Positions 29,436 to 56,378 of a stretch of DNA of 64,000 nucleotides are shown one piece after another. The stretch is from Shigella phage vB_SboS_Gloob: the sequence record OL615011, one strand, 5' to 3'. A model generated the notes under the pieces. That model did not search any database. It was given only the letters and a program-made list of their open reading frames with translations, and had not been told where the DNA came from. A program made the translations under genes and the position numbers. Numbering within the stretch: position 1 is the first letter of the stretch; each line of letters opens with the position of its first letter.

Positions 29436-30005
29436 CTAGACAGGCTTAACGCCGAGGAACTTGGCAATGTCAGCAGCCAGGTTTTTACCCTTGCTGATAT
29501 CCTGCTCCTTGCCGTTGCAGGTGACGATCACATACGGGTCATCTTCACCACCGAAGTTCACGGTGATCGCCTTGCCGATGCCAGGGATGCCAGAGTATTC
29601 GAACTCAGTGCGACCACTCTTGCGGGACTTGCCAACACCCAGTGCTTTACCGATCATCTTGTCCATGTTCGCCAGTTCCTGAGCATAGGCTTCGGTCACC
29701 TGGCCTTTGTCGGCAGACTTGCCAAAGAAGAATTCGAAGCCGTCATGGACAGCAACGACTTCCTGACCTTGGGAGATACCGTGAGTCTGGTCTGGGGTCA
29801 GCTTCACCTTGATGTTGTTGCCGTTGGTTAACTCCAGGTTGTAGACATCCGCCTGATTGTCAGGAGTGATCTGGGTCACGGTAGCACCGGAGCACCACTG
29901 AGTGCCGTCAGCTTGCTTGGTGATGGATACGCTTTTGCCCTGGACACCAGCATGGGTCTGAGGCTGAGCAGCTTGTTCTTTAAAGTATTGAAGGAACGGT
30001 TTCAT
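29436..30005 (-). CDS. internal head protein with capsid targeting sequence (IP-like paralogue)
   Basis: N-terminus MKPFLQYFKEQA; late promoter immediately upstream. Confidence 0.55.
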   Translation of the reverse strand: MKPFLQYFKEQAAQPQTHAGVQGKSVSITKQADGTQWCSGATVTQITPDNQADVYNLELTNGNNIKVKLTPDQTHGISQGQEVVAVHDGFEFFFGKSADKGQVTEAYAQELANMDKMIGKALGVGKSRKSGRTEFEYSGIPGIGKAITVNFGGEDDPYVIVTCNGKEQDISKGKNLAADIAKFLGVKPV

Positions 30006-37583: not shown

Positions 37584-38699
37584 TTATGCGTCCAGTTTGT
37601 TCAGGCGTTGTTGGGCAGCATTGTAGAAGTGCTCTGCAAGTTTACAGACGTTTTCAGGGCGCTGGATGTTGTTCCCGGCGCGGATATCCTTCTTCAGGAC
37701 TTCCACTGCATCGGTTGCCACCATCTCTTCGGTGACCTCAACCTTCTCAGCCGCCACGGTGATAGTCCGGTCGATGAAGTTGTAGTCAATGCACTTGCAG
37801 CGCTTCATGGCATCACAGAACTTTTCATAATGCTTAGCATTGTCGCGGTTCTGTACGATAACCTTAACGATTTGCCCTTCAATACCCAAGCCTGTGTTCA
37901 GCCATTCTGGGTCGATCCAGTTACCCTCATCGTCTGAGGACAACTTGGTGTAGTCATACTCCACATAGCGGAACAACGTCTGGTGCTCGCTGTTGGGGAT
38001 GAATACCTCTCCGCCGCGCATGTCGTCCACATAGAAGCCACGGTTGGTGCCGTCTTTGTAGTCTTCCCAATTCAGGTGATACGGAGTCCCAAGATACTGA
38101 ATGTTACCTTCCATCGAACGGGTATGGAAATGCCCCGTGTCGACCCTGTCAAACTTGGAAAGGAGCGCAACGTCGATCTGACCGTGATCACAAGTAGAGG
38201 ACTGGTACATTTTGAACCCCGCCAACTCCAGATGCGCAAAACAGTACTTGGCGTCCGTAGCGTGTATCGCCGCAATAGATGCATCGTAGTTTTCCTTATT
38301 GATCCACGGTAGGAGCAGAGTCTTGACACCCTCGATCATCACTTCGGTCGGTTCGCTGTAGTAGCAGTACACATCTGGGTCGAGTTCGTTCAGGTAGGAT
38401 GGCCAGTTGATGCGGTTGGACTCTTCCAGGGTGATGTCGTGGTTGCCAACAATGCCATTCCACTTGATACCAGCCTCTTTCAGCGCCGGAGTCAGCTCAT
38501 CTTTCAACCAGTCCTTGTCACGACCGTACATGAATTTGCGGACATCAAATGTGTCACCAAACTGCCACACCTCATGGATGTCGGAGGCGACAAGTTCAGG
38601 GATGAAATAATTGATGAGGTAGTTCTTGATGAAGTCGCGAACGTAACGGGAACCATTACGGCTCCCGATATGCAGATCGCCGATTTTAGCAATCGCCAT
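37584..38699 (-). CDS. 47: recombination nuclease gp47 (Mre11/SbcD-like)
   Basis: 371 aa; phosphoesterase motifs DLHIG and GNHD. Confidence 0.9.
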   Translation of the reverse strand: MAIAKIGDLHIGSRNGSRYVRDFIKNYLINYFIPELVASDIHEVWQFGDTFDVRKFMYGRDKDWLKDELTPALKEAGIKWNGIVGNHDITLEESNRINWPSYLNELDPDVYCYYSEPTEVMIEGVKTLLLPWINKENYDASIAAIHATDAKYCFAHLELAGFKMYQSSTCDHGQIDVALLSKFDRVDTGHFHTRSMEGNIQYLGTPYHLNWEDYKDGTNRGFYVDDMRGGEVFIPNSEHQTLFRYVEYDYTKLSSDDEGNWIDPEWLNTGLGIEGQIVKVIVQNRDNAKHYEKFCDAMKRCKCIDYNFIDRTITVAAEKVEVTEEMVATDAVEVLKKDIRAGNNIQRPENVCKLAEHFYNAAQQRLNKLDA

Positions 38700-39427
38700 T
38701 ATTCTGTTTCTCCTTCGGTTTCGTCCAAATCGAATTGGGTTTTGCCGAAGTCCTGATCTGAATTGTCTTCGGCCTGCGCTGTTACCGTATTCTTAGCCTG
38801 CGCCATGTATTGAAGTATGCCTTTCGCAATCTTTTTATTCGATTCTGCGAGACGAGCTGCCTCCACCTTCTCTCGCTCCTTCTGCCTTTGAGCGTCCTTT
38901 TTGTTCTCAAAGTTGCCGATACGTTCACGGAAGTCCATGCCAATCCCTGTCGCATCAACAAAGATCTCTTGTTGGAAATCGGGATCGTCTGCCAGCCCTG
39001 CGAACCCACCCGCCTCTTCAAATGAGCGCAATTTGATGTACGTATGTTCTTCTTCGATATTCAGTTTACGAGCAAATGAGCGATCCGCACACATGGTCAC
39101 CCAAGAGAAGAAGTTGATCTTCCCTTTCTTTCCAATGTGGTCGACGTCAAAGGTGTGGAGGTAACGCAGGATGTTGACGATTGCTTCAGAGACCATGTCT
39201 TCACGGAAGGGATAGTCGCGATAGTTGTAGCGGGTGCTCATCTTGGTGATGATGCGCTGGACCTGTAGAGCAACATAGTTGGGGATCTTTGGAAGCCTGG
39301 TGCCTTCAGCCAGAGCCTTCTTACGAGCAGGGATCCAATCACGAAGGATACTGATGACACGCTCGTTATCTTCGTCCGTGAAATATTTGACGACATTCTC
39401 GCCACGATCAACATAATTCATACCCAT
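38699..39427 (-). CDS. 55: late transcription sigma factor gp55
   Basis: Region ISILRDW...YVALQVQRIITKMSTRYNYRDY aligns by eye with T4 gp55; T4 order 55-47-46 preserved. Confidence 0.65.
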   Translation of the reverse strand: MGMNYVDRGENVVKYFTDEDNERVISILRDWIPARKKALAEGTRLPKIPNYVALQVQRIITKMSTRYNYRDYPFREDMVSEAIVNILRYLHTFDVDHIGKKGKINFFSWVTMCADRSFARKLNIEEEHTYIKLRSFEEAGGFAGLADDPDFQQEIFVDATGIGMDFRERIGNFENKKDAQRQKEREKVEAARLAESNKKIAKGILQYMAQAKNTVTAQAEDNSDQDFGKTQFDLDETEGETE

Positions 39428-48268: not shown

Positions 48269-50512
48269 TTAGATTTTGATCTCTTTCTCTGCCAGTTCGG
48301 CAGTGACCTTGTACTTCACACCATCCACTTCAACTTCCATGGTGGACTCTTCCAGGTCGAGGTCGGTGAACCAGCCGTGGCCAGCAACGATACCATAAAC
48401 CACTTTAGACAGCGTCTTGTTCAGGGCGCGGACTTCGGTGATGGCCGCCTTGGCAGCAGCGTCGATCCAGTTTTCGATCAGCTGTTTCTGTACGGCTTCA
48501 GGCACGGCAGTGATCGCAGGAGACTTCACGAATGCTTCGTATTCCTTCAGAGCATTGGCGATGAACAAGTCACCCGCATTGAGTTTCTTGTTCTCGGCAA
48601 TCTTCTTCTGTACTGCCGCGATGCTCGGCAGAGAAGACGCTCCAGCGATCTTAACGTTCAGCTCACGGCTCATGTAGACATCCGTGGAGTCCTTCAGTTC
48701 GGTCTTCGGTGAGAAGCCGTAATCACGGATGCCGTAGGAGGACAGGAACTCAGCCGCCTCAGCGCCGTACTGTACTGCCAGGCCTTTGGCGTTGCCTTTG
48801 CCAACCAGTTCATCACGGAAGAACTTCAGCACCTTCTGCTTGCCTTTCAGGGCTTCCAGACGGACATTATCCGCAAAGAACTGAGCAGCACTGATGTTCT
48901 TGACCATGGCGCGGTTGACCAGCGGTACGCTTTCCAGGTTCAGGACAAACACTTCCGGACCACCGAACACATGGACGCCCATCTGGCACAGATTGGTTAC
49001 AACTTCAACATCAGCCCTGAACGGCAGAGTCTTCACGTTGATGATGCCGTCTTTGACGATGGTGTAGTTGCGCCATTGGAAAGTATCCAGTTCTTCAGGC
49101 AGACCGAACTTCTTCTGCACGAACTCCGGAATCGCCACAGTGCCGTGCTGGACAGTGCGTACACTGATATTAGGGCGTTCGGAGTTATAGACCAAATCGC
49201 TGATTGGCACAACACCCAGATCGTTGGTAGGTTCGAACGTCGGGTTCCACTCTTCGTGCTCGGCCAGCTTGAGAGCCAGGGCTTTGCGCTCTTCTTTGGA
49301 CTCGGCGTTCGCGATCTGTTCTGCCAGCTTGTCTTCGGTATCGTCCAGTTTCTGAGCCGTACCGCGACCGATGCTCTTGTAGGAGAACATAGGATGTTTG
49401 GTGGCAACACACACGCCAGCTTCAGCCAGATACGTCAGCACGTCAACGACGGTCGTCGCATCTTCAGCCGGGACCAGGTCATAGTCAATACCGTCAACGC
49501 CGCGCAGCTGGTCATCAACGATGGCCTGGGTCAGATCAACTTTGATGTTGGAGTAGTCCTGCTTGGTGAAGCAGTTGCTGTACTGTTTGATGAAGCGGAC
49601 GTCGCCCGTTTTCTTCAGTGCAGCCCACACCAGGTCTGCGTCCATGATGTGTACGCCGTAGAACGCCAGCACGTATGCCGCCTGGATGTCCGCCAGCGCA
49701 TCAAGTTGGTCGATCATGTTAGGATTGACGACCCACAGCTTCGTGACGCTCTCAGGGATGCTCACGTGGCCAACGGGATGCTCTGCGTCTGCCTGTACCG
49801 CCAGAACAGTTGCTACGCCGTTTTCAACGTAGATGGCATGATCATACAGCAACGGAACATCAACAACCACCTTCGGAACTGAGGACTTCAGCACGGTTTC
49901 CAGCTCGGCCTGATACTCAACCTGACCTTCGGCAAACACGTGAGTCGCACCGGAGCGCTCAGACATCAGAGCCAGCAGTTCGCGGTTACAGTACCAGCCG
50001 TATTCGATGAAAGTGACGTTGTCGAACGCGGAAGGAAGTTTTTCGGCGGTGTCCAGGATCTCATTGGAGCGCCAGCAGTTGTCATAACCATCGGTCATGA
50101 ACGCCAGGTTGTTGACGTAGCCGGGTTTCTTCAGGTCACGCGCAGTATCCATCGCCAGTTTCAATGGCTCAACAAAACCAGTACAGCCGGACGGTTGTAG
50201 GAAGCGGTCGATCAGTTTGTTCAGCTCGCTCAGGTCAGATGCTGCACTAACCTGACGGCCAGCGAACACAGTACCAAAGTCGCCACGGGATGAGAAATAC
50301 AGAACACTCACAGTGTCTTCCGGTTTCACCAGAGAAGGCAGGTTCTCCTTCAGATGCTTACGGACTTCAGGGAGCGCCCGGTACATTGAACCGGAAATGT
50401 CTACAACGATTACATGGTTGGACGGAGCAGCAGTCGCAACCACATTCTTAAATTCTAATGATTCAATCATTGTTCTCTTCGCCTTTTGCGTAAGGGTTAA
50501 GTTCAGACTCAT
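48269..50512 (-). CDS. von Willebrand factor A (vWA) domain protein with MIDAS motif
   Basis: 747 aa; N-terminal VVVDISGSM (DxSxS MIDAS); large C-terminal region of unknown function. Confidence 0.6.
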   Translation of the reverse strand: MSLNLTLTQKAKRTMIESLEFKNVVATAAPSNHVIVVDISGSMYRALPEVRKHLKENLPSLVKPEDTVSVLYFSSRGDFGTVFAGRQVSAASDLSELNKLIDRFLQPSGCTGFVEPLKLAMDTARDLKKPGYVNNLAFMTDGYDNCWRSNEILDTAEKLPSAFDNVTFIEYGWYCNRELLALMSERSGATHVFAEGQVEYQAELETVLKSSVPKVVVDVPLLYDHAIYVENGVATVLAVQADAEHPVGHVSIPESVTKLWVVNPNMIDQLDALADIQAAYVLAFYGVHIMDADLVWAALKKTGDVRFIKQYSNCFTKQDYSNIKVDLTQAIVDDQLRGVDGIDYDLVPAEDATTVVDVLTYLAEAGVCVATKHPMFSYKSIGRGTAQKLDDTEDKLAEQIANAESKEERKALALKLAEHEEWNPTFEPTNDLGVVPISDLVYNSERPNISVRTVQHGTVAIPEFVQKKFGLPEELDTFQWRNYTIVKDGIINVKTLPFRADVEVVTNLCQMGVHVFGGPEVFVLNLESVPLVNRAMVKNISAAQFFADNVRLEALKGKQKVLKFFRDELVGKGNAKGLAVQYGAEAAEFLSSYGIRDYGFSPKTELKDSTDVYMSRELNVKIAGASSLPSIAAVQKKIAENKKLNAGDLFIANALKEYEAFVKSPAITAVPEAVQKQLIENWIDAAAKAAITEVRALNKTLSKVVYGIVAGHGWFTDLDLEESTMEVEVDGVKYKVTAELAEKEIKI

Positions 50513-50678
50513 CAGCGGCTTCGATGCGCGCCTTTACAGAGTCCAGCATATTGTTGATAAACTCACGAGACTGCTCCAGCTGAGCCAAGAGCACATCCTT
50601 TGGAGCATAGTTCTGAATGCAAGCCGGAATACTTTCAGACGTCGCCTTCAGGTCGGTAAAACATTCTTTCAGTACCAT
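50463..50678 (-). CDS. hypothetical protein
   Basis: 71 aa ORF. Confidence 0.35.
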   Translation of the reverse strand: MVLKECFTDLKATSESIPACIQNYAPKDVLLAQLEQSREFINNMLDSVKARIEAADESELNPYAKGEENND

Positions 50679-50744
50679 TTGATCTCACTTAACAGAGACG
50701 ACGCCCTGTTGGATTTAATAGCGGTCTTCACAGACATCAGGTTT

Positions 50745-50772
50745 ACCTCAAAACAGGGGAGTCTCCTCCCCT
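50745..50772 (-). terminator. terminator after NAMPT-like gene
   Basis: AGGGGAG-GAGA-CTCCCCT followed by GTTTTGAGG on minus strand. Confidence 0.5.
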
Positions 50773-50779
50773 TCGGTTA

Positions 50780-52444
50780 TCAGATTTGTGATGCCAATTC
50801 TGCCACCAGAGGAGCAGCACGAACACGCGCATCTTCCAGAGTCTGGGTGTTGAAGAACTTGCCGTCACGATACACCAGCTGGTGCTGGTTGTCGGCGTCT
50901 TGCACCTGATCAAAGGTGATACCGTCAACCAACACTAGTTTACCCTGAGAGTCTTTAATGACTTTAAGGAAACCACGCGCAGACTTTTTAGTCCCGCCTT
51001 TGTCGGTCTTCGGCTCTTTGAAGATCTCACGGAATTCGCCGTTCACTTTACCAGCCGTTGCTTTCACTGCCGTGCCAGTACTGTCACGGGTGTTCATCTG
51101 GTAGGTGTAGGAACCGATACCGAACACCACGTTGATGGAAGCAAAGTTCCGGCCAGCCAGACGACCAAAGATCTGGTCTTCACGTGCCAGGGTGATGGAG
51201 TCGCCGTAAATCAGACCGATGTGTTCGTCCAACAGGAAGTGACCAGTTTCGGTCTGGGTCCCGCCAAAGATCTCCCACAGGCGCTGGATAGAGCCGACCG
51301 CTTCTGAACGACTGATGATATTGCGGTCATCTGCCATCAGAGAGTTGATCGTGCCTTCGCCTGTAATCAGGTGATAGGTGTTCGTCTCTTCGATGTGAAT
51401 GACTTCGGTGCTGCTAGACACGCCGCTGATGTTCAGCATAGCGCGGTCTTTGAACCCCTCAATGCGGTAGCCGCCGACGATATGAACTGGGTCGCCCGAG
51501 TCAGGGCGGATCACGACTTTGCCGTTGCGTGCCATGATAATATCTTTCAGGCGCGGCAGATAGTCGTCGATGACCTGCCAGTAATCCCACGCATCAGACA
51601 CGATGCTGACGATGCCATCAGGATACACGTCCTGCACCAGGCGGCGGAAGGTTTCGAATTCACCATCCTTCGTACCCATACACATCACGGCGTGTTCGGT
51701 AGCCGCAACAGAACCAGCAACGACATAGTCTTCGTCGATGTCTGCGCCATAATACTCTTCTACGAAGTCCAGGGCAGGGTTGGTATCGGTGCCTTTGAAG
51801 AACACCAGATGACCGGAACCGGAAGACGCCGCGTCATGCCACCCACTCATACCACGGAAGGAGAAGTCGTGGCCTTGGTAGTCGATGAACCAATGGTCCG
51901 GCGACACGCCTGTAGCGAGGGCAGCTTTCACCATCAGTGCCTTGTAATGCAGAGCGATGGTGGCGTTCGTCATCGGCTTCCAGATCTCAGAGCTGAACAC
52001 AGTCTCCAGATAGTTGGTCAGCCAGTAGAACTCCGGCAGGGTGTTGAACATCACATACACCGGAACGCCATATGGGCACATGGTGCCTTCAGGCAGAGCA
52101 CGGACTTCGATAGGCAGGTAGCCGAGGTCATGCAGGGCTTCAATATGCTCTGTGCCGACGCGGCCTGGACCCAGGACTTTGTTCATGCGACGGGCATACT
52201 TCTTCAACACCTTGGCCTTTGGGCGCTGGAAGAATGCTTCGTCAAACAGTTCGTGGAACCAGGTCATGAAGCCCTGGATGCCCCAGACCACCACGCCGTT
52301 CTTCGGCAGGTGAGAGTTGAACAGTTTGTTGGAGCGCGGAGTTCCGTTGGAGAACACCAGCTCGCTGCCTTCAGGGAACTGATAGATGTGCCCTGATTTG
52401 TAGAAGTCGATTGCATGGATTGGATCTAAGTGGCGCATGCTCAT
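50780..52444 (-). CDS. nadV: nicotinamide phosphoribosyltransferase family protein (NAMPT/NadV or Namat)
   Basis: 554 aa; motifs FKGTDT, VAGSVAATEHA, RPDSGDP. Confidence 0.8.
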   Translation of the reverse strand: MSMRHLDPIHAIDFYKSGHIYQFPEGSELVFSNGTPRSNKLFNSHLPKNGVVVWGIQGFMTWFHELFDEAFFQRPKAKVLKKYARRMNKVLGPGRVGTEHIEALHDLGYLPIEVRALPEGTMCPYGVPVYVMFNTLPEFYWLTNYLETVFSSEIWKPMTNATIALHYKALMVKAALATGVSPDHWFIDYQGHDFSFRGMSGWHDAASSGSGHLVFFKGTDTNPALDFVEEYYGADIDEDYVVAGSVAATEHAVMCMGTKDGEFETFRRLVQDVYPDGIVSIVSDAWDYWQVIDDYLPRLKDIIMARNGKVVIRPDSGDPVHIVGGYRIEGFKDRAMLNISGVSSSTEVIHIEETNTYHLITGEGTINSLMADDRNIISRSEAVGSIQRLWEIFGGTQTETGHFLLDEHIGLIYGDSITLAREDQIFGRLAGRNFASINVVFGIGSYTYQMNTRDSTGTAVKATAGKVNGEFREIFKEPKTDKGGTKKSARGFLKVIKDSQGKLVLVDGITFDQVQDADNQHQLVYRDGKFFNTQTLEDARVRAAPLVAELASQI

Positions 52445-53295
52445 TTTACACGTCCTGTATTTTCAGTTTTGAAAGGAAGGCCGTCGGTGGTGATATTCTC
52501 CCACCAGACAGTGTCGGCATACACAGCATCATAGATCCCGTCGAAAACAGAGAGACCTTTGCTGAAGATGCCATGGGTGACGAAGAGCGTCATGTGCTTA
52601 GGCTCGTGCTTCTGAAGCTCTTTACCCAGCTCAACAAACGTGCGCCCGCCATCGCAGATATCATCAACCACCACCAGATAGCGGTCTTTGATCAGTTCAG
52701 GGTTTGTAATGCTCACCCCAATGATCTCACCAGTCTTGGTGTCACGGTTCTTGTGGCCGTAGACAACAGGAACACCATCCAACGACAGGCTGAGGGCTTC
52801 GGTCTTCTTCGCCGCGCCGCCGTCAGGGGCTACTAGCACAGCGTTGTTCCCACGGATGAACCAGCCCAGATACTGCCGCACGATGTAATCTTGCGGGACA
52901 ACATGGACGTTGTTGATCAGAGAAGACACGACATGGCTGTGAGGGTCTTTGATCGCCACGCGGTCAAAGTTCATGCTATTGATGAACTCAGCCGCCCACT
53001 TCACGGACAGAGGCTCGCCGAAGTCGCAATGGCGGTCCTGGCGAGCATACGGGAAGTAAGGGATATACGCATGGAAGGTCGTCAGACGGTCCACGTTACC
53101 CAGGCCGCGCACGGCGTTTACCAGAAGCGCCAGCTCAATGAAGTCGGCTGATGATTTGATGTGGGCATCAATCACAACCGTCTGAATCTTACCGACAGGA
53201 ATACCAGCCTTTTGGATCTTGATATGTTCCTCACCACCTGGGAAGGTGAAGTGTTTGTAGAACACATCTTGGTCGTTCAATTTCAAACGAAACAT
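52441..53295 (-). CDS. ribose-phosphate pyrophosphokinase (Prs) family protein, candidate ADPR-PP synthetase
   Basis: 284 aa; Prs hallmark IPYFPYARQDR and PRPP-binding loop VVVDDICDGGRT; overlaps NAMPT-like gene. Confidence 0.75.
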   Translation of the reverse strand: MFRLKLNDQDVFYKHFTFPGGEEHIKIQKAGIPVGKIQTVVIDAHIKSSADFIELALLVNAVRGLGNVDRLTTFHAYIPYFPYARQDRHCDFGEPLSVKWAAEFINSMNFDRVAIKDPHSHVVSSLINNVHVVPQDYIVRQYLGWFIRGNNAVLVAPDGGAAKKTEALSLSLDGVPVVYGHKNRDTKTGEIIGVSITNPELIKDRYLVVVDDICDGGRTFVELGKELQKHEPKHMTLFVTHGIFSKGLSVFDGIYDAVYADTVWWENITTDGLPFKTENTGRVK

Positions 53296-53401
53296 AATGT
53301 AGCCTCATGGTGTATTGTACAGCCGTATTATACTGTGATGCACAAATTGAAACACCCAGCAAATATACTGGGCGTCATTGATATTGAAGGAGTTTACTGA
53401 T

Positions 53402-53770
53402 TCAGGTTTTGGATTGTTCACATACCTCGGCCACCTTGCGACACATGTCGATATCGAACAAGCCAATATGACACTCACGCTTCTTTATCCCCAGCTTATG
53501 CGCCAGCCAACTGTAAGCGTCGCTCCTGCTCCTCTCTCCGCTTTTCCACAATGGGTCAAACGATCTGCTTCTCGGCACGGAGAGCGGCATTCGCCATCCT
53601 TCCCAGAGGTTGTCTGCCGTCGCCATGGGCATGGCAACCGACACGAGCGTCACATGGAGTGCATACCCAGAACTTCAGATTGCGGAGGTCAGGGCGATGA
53701 GGGTGGAGGACGTCACCACCGATGAATTCGGCTGGGAGGCCGCAGTAATCACAGATGACAGGTTTCATAT
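53402..53770 (-). pseudogene. DUF3268-like zinc-ribbon protein split by a +1 frameshift
   Basis: N-terminal ORF (CDYCG...CTPCDARVGCH...PLGRMANAALRAEKQIV stop) and C-terminal ORF (RSRSFDPLWKSGERSRSDAYSWLAHKLGIKKRECHIGLFDIDMC) together form one domain of about 120 aa; frame change near 53570-53590. Confidence 0.4.
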
Positions 53771-53774
53771 TCTT

Positions 53775-53806
53775 TGTCCAAAAGAAACCCCGCACATGGC
53801 GGGGTT
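53775..53806 (-). terminator. rho-independent terminator
   Basis: AACCCCGC-CATGT-GCGGGGTT followed by TCTTTTGG on minus strand. Confidence 0.6.
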
Positions 53807-53828
53807 GCTCAGGCCGAGGCCAACAGGG

Positions 53829-54200
53829 TTATTTCAGCAGCGCTTCCAGTTCTTCAACAGATTTGCCTTCCAGCTCCTGCTGTTTCTTACGCTGGATCAG
53901 CTCCAGGATAACCTGGTTGTTCGCCTTACGCTCTGCCGCGTCTTTGCTGTCGTCACGCTCTTTCAGCTTAACGCCGATGATGTGCTTGACAACGTCGAAG
54001 CGCAGCTGCAGTTCGGAGTCAACGTTGCTTTTGGTGCCGATGAAATCTTCTTCATCGGTTTCCGCTGCCTTCACCTGACGGCTCAGACCTTTCGCCATTT
54101 CGTTCAGGGCAGTCAGGCTCAGGTCCCAGACCTGCTCAACAGACAGCAGACCTTTGTTAGACTCGAAGCGCAGTTTCAGACGGGTTGCTTTATCAAACAT
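53829..54200 (-). CDS. hypothetical charged protein
   Basis: 123 aa ORF. Confidence 0.45.
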   Translation of the reverse strand: MFDKATRLKLRFESNKGLLSVEQVWDLSLTALNEMAKGLSRQVKAAETDEEDFIGTKSNVDSELQLRFDVVKHIIGVKLKERDDSKDAAERKANNQVILELIQRKKQQELEGKSVEELEALLK

Positions 54201-54244
54201 TTTACTATCCTCAATGATGAATGGGTTACAGTTTCAAATCAGGT

Positions 54245-56263
54245 TTAGAAAACAACTTTCACAGTGCGGTTGAAAGAGCCGCTCACCTTCACGAACACGT
54301 GGTTGCGTTGGGTGGTAGAGAAGCCCAGACCGGACAGCTGCTCAGTGCTTGGCTGTACTTTAATCTTACCGCCCAACATTTCAAAAACCTTGCGGTGTTT
54401 ATCAAGTTCCGGCTTCAGATACTCGTTATAGAAGCCACGAGTGCCGACAGGGTTAGCACAACCTTCCAGAATGAAGAACACGTGCTTGTTGCCTGTCTGT
54501 TCGCCATCCCAATGGTTTGGTGAGTTCAGAACCAGCTGTACCTTCTGGAAGACAGCGGTCTTGATACCCCAGATTTCCTGGGAGCGAGCATCGTCCTTCA
54601 GGGTAGAACGGATGTCTACCACTTGTCCAGCGCGGACATCAATCACAACAGCCAGAGTGCGATCTTTGTGCTTCAGGCCAGGATGCGAAAAACGCTTGGT
54701 CTGGCCTTTGTATTCAACTTCGATTTCGAAGCCCATATCACAGGTTTCACGCTGGCTGAAGTTAGTGACATAGAACTCGTACAGACCATCACGCAGCTTG
54801 CGTTCATCGCTGAAGAAGATGTTCTCCACCGGGCGGCGGTTGGGGTCAATACCGTCCATACCGTTCATGTCGATATCCAGGGTTGCGCCAGTTGCCGAAC
54901 GACGGTTGTGATAATACACGTGGTTGTGAAGAGGATCGTTCAGGCTCAGATCCAGGTCATCGTTGTTATGCCACGCCAGGGACACACGGAGGAAACCGTC
55001 AACGTTGCCGCCTGCCGTCTTCACGCGCTCTTTGATGGAGTCGGCCACTTCACCGTTGTATGACCAGCTGAAGCCGTTGTTCCACTTGAACAGGTTAGGA
55101 GCACCTGCCGTAGCCGGAGCGATCAGGGACATCAGGTTGCCAGTGTGAGAGTTTTCAACCAGCACTTCCAGGGAATGCGCCTTTGGCAACACGTTGGTCA
55201 GGAAGTCGTCGATGGTGATCTCTTCAACCTTGTCCAGGGACTTGGTCGGAGTCTTCACTTCAGACGCCAGCTGAGCAAACGGGTCCATCTTCTTCTGTGC
55301 TGCCAGGTCGGCAAACAGAACGTTGTTGATGGTCAGATCGTCATACACGGCATAACGGCGACCCAGTGAATCAGTCAGACCCAGCGCTTCGACTTCTTTC
55401 TGCGCGTTTTCAATCATGGACTTCGTGACCAGCGCGGTTGGGCGCTTGTAGTTCGTCGGAGCGACTTTGGCTTCAAAGGACTTCACGGCGGTTTCCAGAT
55501 CCCGACCTTCATTGAGGTCTACCAACAGAGAGCCAATCACGGTATTGCGGATGCCGTGAGGGGTGTGTCCGTTTGCACGGTAGCCAGTACGCCAAGCCCA
55601 CAGAGCGCGTTTCTCTTCTGCAGTTTGTTCGTACAGGGTCTTGCTCGTCACGAACGCCTGCACAGCAGCTTTGTGCTCTTCACCACGATACAGAGAATTC
55701 TGATCAATCAGTTCCAGAACGATTTCGGCCGATTCCAGAGACAGTTCACGCAGGCCGCGCTCAAACACTTCAATCGCCTGGCGGATTTCACCCTTCTTAG
55801 AAGCGATGGCATCAGCCCGCAGAACATAGCTGGGCAGCAGGTCGGTGTGGAAGTGGTTGTAGGTGCGGACATTACCGTCTTTCATTTCGTGATTCGACTC
55901 AACGCCGACTTTCTTGGTATCGTTGAAGTACACGTCGACGATTGCGTGTTGCTTGACATACGCAGACAGCGCCGCAGCGACAACGTCGTATTCGTTACCC
56001 AGCTGAATGTTATCCCAGATAGAGATCACGTTCAGGTCGGCGTCGATGGTCACCACACCGCCGATGTTACGGATGAATTGTTTACAGCAGGTGCAGTCGT
56101 GCTCGGTGCGCTCACGGTAGAGCGGGTTGGTGCCAGCAGGGAAAGAGTTCAGATACAGATCCCACAGAGCATCTTTATCGATGTTGGTCATGAACAGACC
56201 AGTTGCTGACATGGCCAGCACATTATTGTTTACGGCTACTGCGAAGGGCTTAAATTCTGACAT
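54245..56263 (-). CDS. large hypothetical protein (672 aa)
   Basis: Long uninterrupted ORF; Cys cluster HDCTCCKQF; no recognised catalytic motif. Confidence 0.55.
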   Translation of the reverse strand: MSEFKPFAVAVNNNVLAMSATGLFMTNIDKDALWDLYLNSFPAGTNPLYRERTEHDCTCCKQFIRNIGGVVTIDADLNVISIWDNIQLGNEYDVVAAALSAYVKQHAIVDVYFNDTKKVGVESNHEMKDGNVRTYNHFHTDLLPSYVLRADAIASKKGEIRQAIEVFERGLRELSLESAEIVLELIDQNSLYRGEEHKAAVQAFVTSKTLYEQTAEEKRALWAWRTGYRANGHTPHGIRNTVIGSLLVDLNEGRDLETAVKSFEAKVAPTNYKRPTALVTKSMIENAQKEVEALGLTDSLGRRYAVYDDLTINNVLFADLAAQKKMDPFAQLASEVKTPTKSLDKVEEITIDDFLTNVLPKAHSLEVLVENSHTGNLMSLIAPATAGAPNLFKWNNGFSWSYNGEVADSIKERVKTAGGNVDGFLRVSLAWHNNDDLDLSLNDPLHNHVYYHNRRSATGATLDIDMNGMDGIDPNRRPVENIFFSDERKLRDGLYEFYVTNFSQRETCDMGFEIEVEYKGQTKRFSHPGLKHKDRTLAVVIDVRAGQVVDIRSTLKDDARSQEIWGIKTAVFQKVQLVLNSPNHWDGEQTGNKHVFFILEGCANPVGTRGFYNEYLKPELDKHRKVFEMLGGKIKVQPSTEQLSGLGFSTTQRNHVFVKVSGSFNRTVKVVF

Positions 56264-56378
56264 GATGTAGTCTTCCTGTTTCAGTTCAAATGTGCGCCCC
56301 GTTTGCCAGAGCGCTTCGTTTAAGTGAGGTCAATAATACGTTGAAAAAGGTTATTGAAGAATGAAGTAAAGGGAATCT

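Follow-up and report, generated by a model that had tools for sequence, protein, structure and literature searches.

On the minus strand of the analyzed window, a stretch of 64,000 nucleotides from Shigella phage vB_SboS_Gloob (OL615011), positions 53,402 to 53,770 are occupied by two overlapping open reading frames. ORF A (53556..53768) runs from an ATG at 53768 to a TGA at 53558-53556 and encodes 70 amino acids, or 79 amino acids if it is read from a GTG at 53795. The predicted protein (MKPVICDYCGLPAEF...CTPCDARVGCHAHGDGRQPLGRMANAALRAEKQIV) contains a four-cysteine zinc ribbon (CxxC...CxxC) and ends with ...LRAEKQIV. ORF B (53653-53402, minus strand) encodes 83 amino acids and is open upstream to a GTG at 53653; its codons start 1 nucleotide downstream of those of ORF A, that is, in the +1 frame.

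Comparison of the two translations with Pfam identified both as parts of the same domain, DUF3268 (PF11672, a profile of 121 positions with a gathering score of 28.4 bits). ORF A matches profile positions 2-66 with 42.7 bits and ORF B matches positions 70-120 with 61.2 bits; when the two are joined, the match extends over positions 2-120 and the score rises to 108.2 bits. Both fragments also match the same PHROGs family, phrog_1934. Half-domain matches that lie side by side in the proper order, at such scores, are far beyond chance. A DUF3268 domain of about 120 amino acids in a single frame is not found here: the halves are in different frames, with a stop codon between them, and the window copy is, by its sequence, a disrupted rather than an intact member of the family. 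These observations bear out the earlier note on this DNA, which held that two minus-strand ORFs rebuild a single DUF3268 domain and listed its motifs (CxxC, CxxC, H, FDPLW, AYSWLA and CHIGLFD), all of which are indeed present. The same note placed the change of frame near 53570-53590, away from any homopolymer; the absence of a homopolymer stands, but the break itself maps a few bases further 3', between 53567 and 53566. The C-terminal half of the domain (RSFDPLWKSGERSRSDAYSWLAHKLGIKKRECHIGLFDIDMCRKVAEVCEQSKT*; 53402..53566, minus strand) thus lies within ORF B, now in the +1 frame, and the premature TGA of the N-terminal fragment (53556..53558) is located 3 codons past the junction (CAG ATC GTT TGA C).

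The gene is located between a gene for a 123-aa protein and NAD-salvage genes. A terminator-like hairpin of the upstream 123-aa gene (53786..53806, minus strand; AACCCCGC CATGT GCGGGGTT followed by a T-run) directly precedes the DUF3268 start and is kept in the relatives. Further upstream, the Gloob and ChubbyThor records give the 672-aa protein encoded at 54245-56263 (minus strand) the name "putative DNA-directed RNA polymerase"; our scan found no Pfam domain in this protein, the precomputed list gives DUF8224 alone, and the RNA polymerase name looks unsupported. On the other side, only a short spacer (53296..53401, minus strand) separates the broken gene from the gene for ribose-phosphate pyrophosphokinase. 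At this spot, close relatives carry either a gene of 264-290 codons (Pfam Phage_gp49_66) or two small ORFs: a 264-aa member of the Phage_gp49_66 family (L001:2015-2809), which is missing from the window, is present in P46FS4, ChubbyThor, MK-13 and Marshall, with an added RyR domain in Marshall, and AV101 has two small ORFs instead. From approximately position 53437 onward, the last 12 or so codons of the window gene also differ from the Agtrevirus consensus. The 3' side of the DUF3268 gene is, judging from these comparisons, a mosaic spot.

The relatives of Gloob provide the reference for the ancestral state of the gene. Over 20 kb, the window DNA is 96-97% identical to that of phages P46FS4, MK-13 and Ag3 (Agtrevirus, Ackermannviridae). 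We aligned the locus with that of eight Ackermannviridae (P46FS4, ChubbyThor, AV101, Marshall, MK-13, SKML-39, EspM4VN and pSal-SNUABM-02), and all eight contain an uninterrupted gene of 124-136 codons along with 11 bases that the window lacks, so that the alignment to related phages proposed in the earlier note recovered intact homologs. The intact orthologs in this family include the 133-aa protein of Ag3 (orf00153) and P46FS4, ChubbyThor gp164, annotated as "putative zinc-finger-containing domain protein", and the protein of PhiSH19 and Vi01, which consists of 136 amino acids in Vi01. For the PhiSH19 ortholog, of 139 amino acids, the genome table goes no further than calling it a conserved, uncharacterised DUF3268 protein (PMC3220722). 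The window copy shares with these orthologs its position (the 123-aa gene on one side, the NAD-salvage genes on the other), the upstream terminator and all the motifs, and outside the lesion the DNA identity is 92-97%. The orthologs are single ORFs, whereas the window copy is 11 bp short, differs at its 3' end and is not followed by a gene of the Phage_gp49_66 family. Apart from the deletion, the window gene is 97% identical to the intact orthologs and displays no independent sign of relaxed selection, as would be expected if the deletion is recent.

Beyond the close relatives, an intact gene is the rule. With the intact protein as the tblastn query, 245 strong phage matches were obtained, 242 of which cover at least 80% of the query; among the best 60 of these 245 matches, all but one (59/60) are single 366-nt pieces without indels. 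The intact spacing of 34 nt across the site was found in all 12 IMG/VR contigs and in 1 metagenome contig. Conversely, a 46-nt probe spanning the Gloob junction had no match in 50,697 phage records, and a junction 28-mer had none in IMG/VR. A tblastn search with the ORF B peptide plus its out-of-frame N-terminal extension, which at a strict E-value finds only genomes where that frame is continuous, yielded one real case among the 50,697 records, Yersinia phage CAU_YEP3, in which the split results from a different deletion. The earlier note had regarded the presence of the same two ORFs as separate conserved genes in related phages as evidence against a single ancestral gene; no such pair of separately conserved genes emerged, CAU_YEP3 being the only comparable genome in this record set. 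Tblastn matches marked "(x2)" in Kuttervirus, which we considered as possible split genes, turned out to be abutting neighbors, and a single 136-aa CDS is present in Cba120 and "barely".

The alignment pinpoints the lesion. The 11 bases missing between C53567 and A53566 (junction 53566..53567, minus strand) correspond to GAAAAGCCCAT, or a close variant, in the intact relatives, where they form codons 68-71 (R/Q-K-A-H); the flanks are ...GCCGAGAAGC on one side and AGATCGTTTGACCC... on the other. Because 11 bases are lost, the sequence past the junction now reads in the +1 frame, and the original frame encounters the TGA 3 codons on. Inspection of the sequence revealed neither a homopolymer nor flanking microhomology at the junction. 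The only GATC of the gene (53565-53562) adjoins the junction. Slippage between repeats does not account for the loss: near the site, the intact allele contains just one direct repeat, GAAAAGC, whose copies lie 31 nt apart and would produce a 31-nt rather than an 11-nt deletion. The 11-bp deletion is derived and lineage-specific, and it destroys the conserved domain.

Across 30 aligned homologs, the most distant at 42% identity, neither His71 nor Phe74 varies, and Ala70 is nearly invariant; in the numbering of the intact homolog P0001, the family-invariant residues are C6, C9, C36, C39, H71, F74, D75, W78, H104 and C113. The window encodes all of these except H71, which, together with the nearly invariant A70, falls within the deleted 11 bp. 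In the AlphaFold model of P0001 (mean pLDDT 93.6), residues 1-60 form a beta region resembling a zinc ribbon and three helices come next (61-79, 85-96 and 110-133); the deleted residues are located within the first long helix. Besides the ribbon cysteines, the conserved C45/H46, H71, C103/H104 and C113 could form a second metal site that bridges the two halves of the protein. The conserved domain is reproduced neither by the two fragments nor by a frameshifted fusion of them. The absence of His71, an interruption within helix 61-79 of the model and the early stop codon together suggest that the ancestral function has been lost.

As for what that function might be, the combination of a zinc ribbon with a small helical bundle that bears a weak likeness to helix-turn-helix DNA-binding domains hints, tentatively, at nucleic-acid binding by the intact protein. 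In PHROGs, only families of unknown function were matched, there is no NCBIfam model for the DUF3268 protein, and a PDB sequence search with the protein yielded nothing relevant. An Rfam "DUF3268 RNA motif" is known to precede some genes of the family (PMC10573300, PMC8191799). A search for this motif at positions 53000-54400 of the window found nothing, even at E <= 10.

Taken together, these data make it very probable that a single ancestral DUF3268 gene was broken by a recent 11-bp deletion, presumably with the loss of its ancestral function. Under this scenario, the ancestor would have possessed one gene for a DUF3268 protein of approximately 125-135 amino acids, in which a four-cysteine zinc ribbon at the N-terminus leads into a domain of three helices. 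A deletion of 11 bp in the Gloob lineage of Agtrevirus has broken the gene midway along the first long helix, with the loss of the invariant histidine, and has thrown the C-terminal half into the +1 frame, with the N-terminal fragment stopping at the TGA 3 codons on. No more would be made than the 70-aa stub with the zinc ribbon and, perhaps, a C-terminal peptide of 62 amino acids from a start of its own. The phage would tolerate the loss because the gene is a dispensable accessory that has been degraded in other Ackermannviridae as well. A recent inactivating mutation was one of three explanations offered in the earlier note, and it is the one that accords with the absence of the 11-bp deletion from all the intact relatives examined. 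The event is an ordinary recent gene inactivation in a known but uncharacterised family.

Degradation of the same gene was detected in three other phages. In Yersinia phage CAU_YEP3 (PQ863687.1; L030:301-700), a 2-nt deletion (AT/TA) converts CCCATAGATCG to CCCAGATCG. As in Gloob, the break is at the same spot, with the same 3' boundary beside the only GATC of the gene and the same +1 relation between the halves; the N-terminal fragment ends with ...QIV* at the same TGA, and the C-terminal piece is annotated from the ATG equivalent to that at 53590 in the window. Unlike in Gloob, 2 nt rather than 11 nt are lost, the two genes differ by approximately 16 substitutions, and the 3' flanks are different. 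Given these substitutions and the distinct 3' flank, independent origin of the two deletions is the simpler reading. In E. coli phage vB_EcoM-ZQ1 (L010:1501-1659), only codons 1-53 remain, followed by unrelated sequence. In Dickeya phage Ds16CZ (L009:1180-1720), the remnant lacks more than 100 bp internally and is joined downstream of a fragment that resembles the N-terminus of the 672-aa upstream gene. Given the independent degradation in CAU_YEP3, ZQ1 and Ds16CZ, the DUF3268 gene appears to be a dispensable accessory gene that decays independently in several Ackermannviridae.

The 3' boundary shared by the Gloob and CAU_YEP3 deletions could reflect chance, a local hot spot or selection. Combined with the gene loss in ZQ1 and Ds16CZ, this coincidence might be taken to indicate that the site is a specific mutational hot spot, or that host-dependent selection recurrently inactivates the DUF3268 protein; we consider either to be improbable. 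If the selection reading were true, it could reflect, for example, escape from a host defense that senses the DUF3268 protein. As to a mechanism for a hot spot, GATC-directed cleavage was considered and set aside: the window shows no avoidance of GATC (369 sites in 64 kb, with an observed to expected ratio of 0.92), and the site next to the junction is unremarkable.

It is distinctly unlikely that the split itself has been selected, with the zinc-ribbon stub, the C-terminal helical peptide, or both being made and put to use as separate, perhaps neofunctionalised, products. A plausible translation start does precede the C-terminal half in the +1 frame (53588..53601, minus strand): AAGGA at 53601-53597, a 6-nt spacer, and an ATG at 53590-53588, which would give a product of 62 amino acids. 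Use of this ATG as a separate start is conceivable, and the CAU_YEP3 annotation begins its C-terminal piece at the corresponding ATG. However, the bases of the AAGGA-N6-ATG element are invariant in the intact relatives, where they encode LGRMAN; because they serve as codons there, the candidate start would be fortuitous and has not evolved, or been selected, as a start. The 75 positions of phrog_25081 (PHROGs v4) map exactly onto residues 58-132 of the complete protein, the first of them being the internal Met of ...GRMANAALR...; it appears that certain phage annotations take that inner ATG as the beginning of the gene or contain C-terminal fragments of this kind. That this 75-aa family covers the C-terminal half alone would fit with an autonomous role for this half, as would the agreement of the 11-nt deletion in Gloob and the 2-nt deletion in CAU_YEP3 in the 3' boundary, the shift and the stop, which is not expected of random inactivation. 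Nevertheless, the deletion interrupts what is predicted to be one continuous helix and takes out an invariant His, the split is seen in 2 genomes as opposed to more than 240 with an intact gene, other lineages simply drop most of the gene, and the gene caller of the Logan pipeline called neither fragment.

Returning to inactivation by deletion, the lesion itself is genuine. In a Logan re-assembly of SRR17231375, a contig of 156,476 nt matches the window at 100% identity across 6,855 nt (49441-56295), the deletion included, and the PRPP-synthetase protein of the window is found exactly on the same contig. The comparison is between two assemblies, the re-assembly and the deposited genome, built from one set of reads; it rules out an assembly artifact but leaves room for a mutation that arose during laboratory propagation. 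The lesion thus genuinely belongs to the phage population that was sequenced, although it could have originated in the laboratory. Sequencing or assembly error, also considered in the earlier note, would mean that the phage has an intact gene and that 11 bases were dropped from the deposited consensus. The lesion is the sole clearly frame-breaking one in the window, and isolated single frameshifts are sometimes artifacts. Against this, the independent re-assembly is identical across the site, and the 11-nt loss sits outside any homopolymer or repeat. A loss of this kind is not a typical signature of read error. Moreover, a base-by-base comparison of the window with approximately 60 kb of P46FS4 revealed no other clearly ORF-breaking indel among those checked: the other gaps in coding sequences that are not multiples of 3 are either nearby compensating pairs in divergent stretches or located at gene ends, which argues that the assembly is not noisy. 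On this evidence, such an error is very unlikely. Two of the differences between these genomes are at gene ends. A 1-nt gap at approximately position 29438 of the window coincides with the stop-codon end of a P46FS4 coding sequence (L011:36461-37030), in a stretch of 88% identity. The gene for a gp55-like late sigma factor (38699-39427, minus strand) is reduced at its acidic 3' end by approximately 50 nt relative to its counterpart in P46FS4, so that the products consist of 242 and 263 amino acids, respectively; given that the ORF is intact in both phages and that the one in the window abuts the next gene, this gap represents a variable C-terminus rather than a frameshift.

That the two halves are fused by programmed +1 ribosomal frameshifting at GUU UGA C (53561-53555), in the manner of the CUU UGA C site of prfB, is hardly credible, given that the frame break was produced by a deletion unique to this genome and the close relatives have a single frame, so that there is no evolved, conserved shift site. 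At prfB, an in-frame UGA followed by C and an upstream Shine-Dalgarno-like element accompany continuation in the +1 frame, and the resemblance to this site is superficial: in the window, the 0-frame stop is likewise UGA followed by C, a weak termination context identical to that of prfB, the +1 frame is open from the UGA through the entire C-terminal half, and the same CAG AUC GUU UGA C arrangement arose independently in CAU_YEP3. In contrast to prfB, the P-site codon in the window is GUU rather than CUU, and re-pairing of GUU to UUU entails a first-position mismatch, which is poorer than re-pairing of CUU to UUU. The site also differs in its origin by recent deletion and in the lack of conservation, of a stimulator and of a stabilizing structure: a Shine-Dalgarno-like AGGGGG 3 bases upstream is absent, the bases there being GAGAAGCAGAUC, and the predicted RNA fold of 53470-53585 is no more stable than that of shuffled sequence (z = 0.28). 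A single frame, not the two-frame arrangement, is present in the 8 aligned relatives, in 59 of the best 60 matches and in the 13 IMG/VR and metagenome contigs. Finally, the fusion would read ...AEKQIV-DPLW..., without the invariant His71 and with the invariant Phe74 replaced. Programmed frameshifting, which the earlier note had listed as an option, is thus disfavored by the lack of conservation of the site, the absence of stimulators and the loss of the histidine. Low-level spontaneous frameshifting may occur, and the fragments may retain some residual activity.

For gene inactivation by the 11-bp deletion, the main value of the finding lies in annotation, in that the Gloob locus should be marked as a disrupted gene and not as an ordinary zinc-finger CDS. 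The DUF3268 gene is apparently dispensable for an Agtrevirus on its isolation host and has been lost repeatedly in Ackermannviridae; this repeated loss may aid the search for the role of a widespread phage domain, and no larger question is opened. In the GenBank record of Gloob, the 79-aa ORF that starts with the GTG at 53795 is UHS64968.1, a "putative zinc-finger-containing domain protein", and three flanking proteins of the window are UHS64967, UHS64969 and UHS64970. Because the accessions UHS64967-64970 run consecutively, the C-terminal half is left without annotation in this record. Annotation of the locus varies among the phages with an intact frame as well: nothing is annotated in MK-13, EspM4VN (L005, L007) and A221 though the frame is intact, and in P46FS4 an antisense ORF (ORF48, L001:1643-2011) is annotated in place of the DUF3268 gene.
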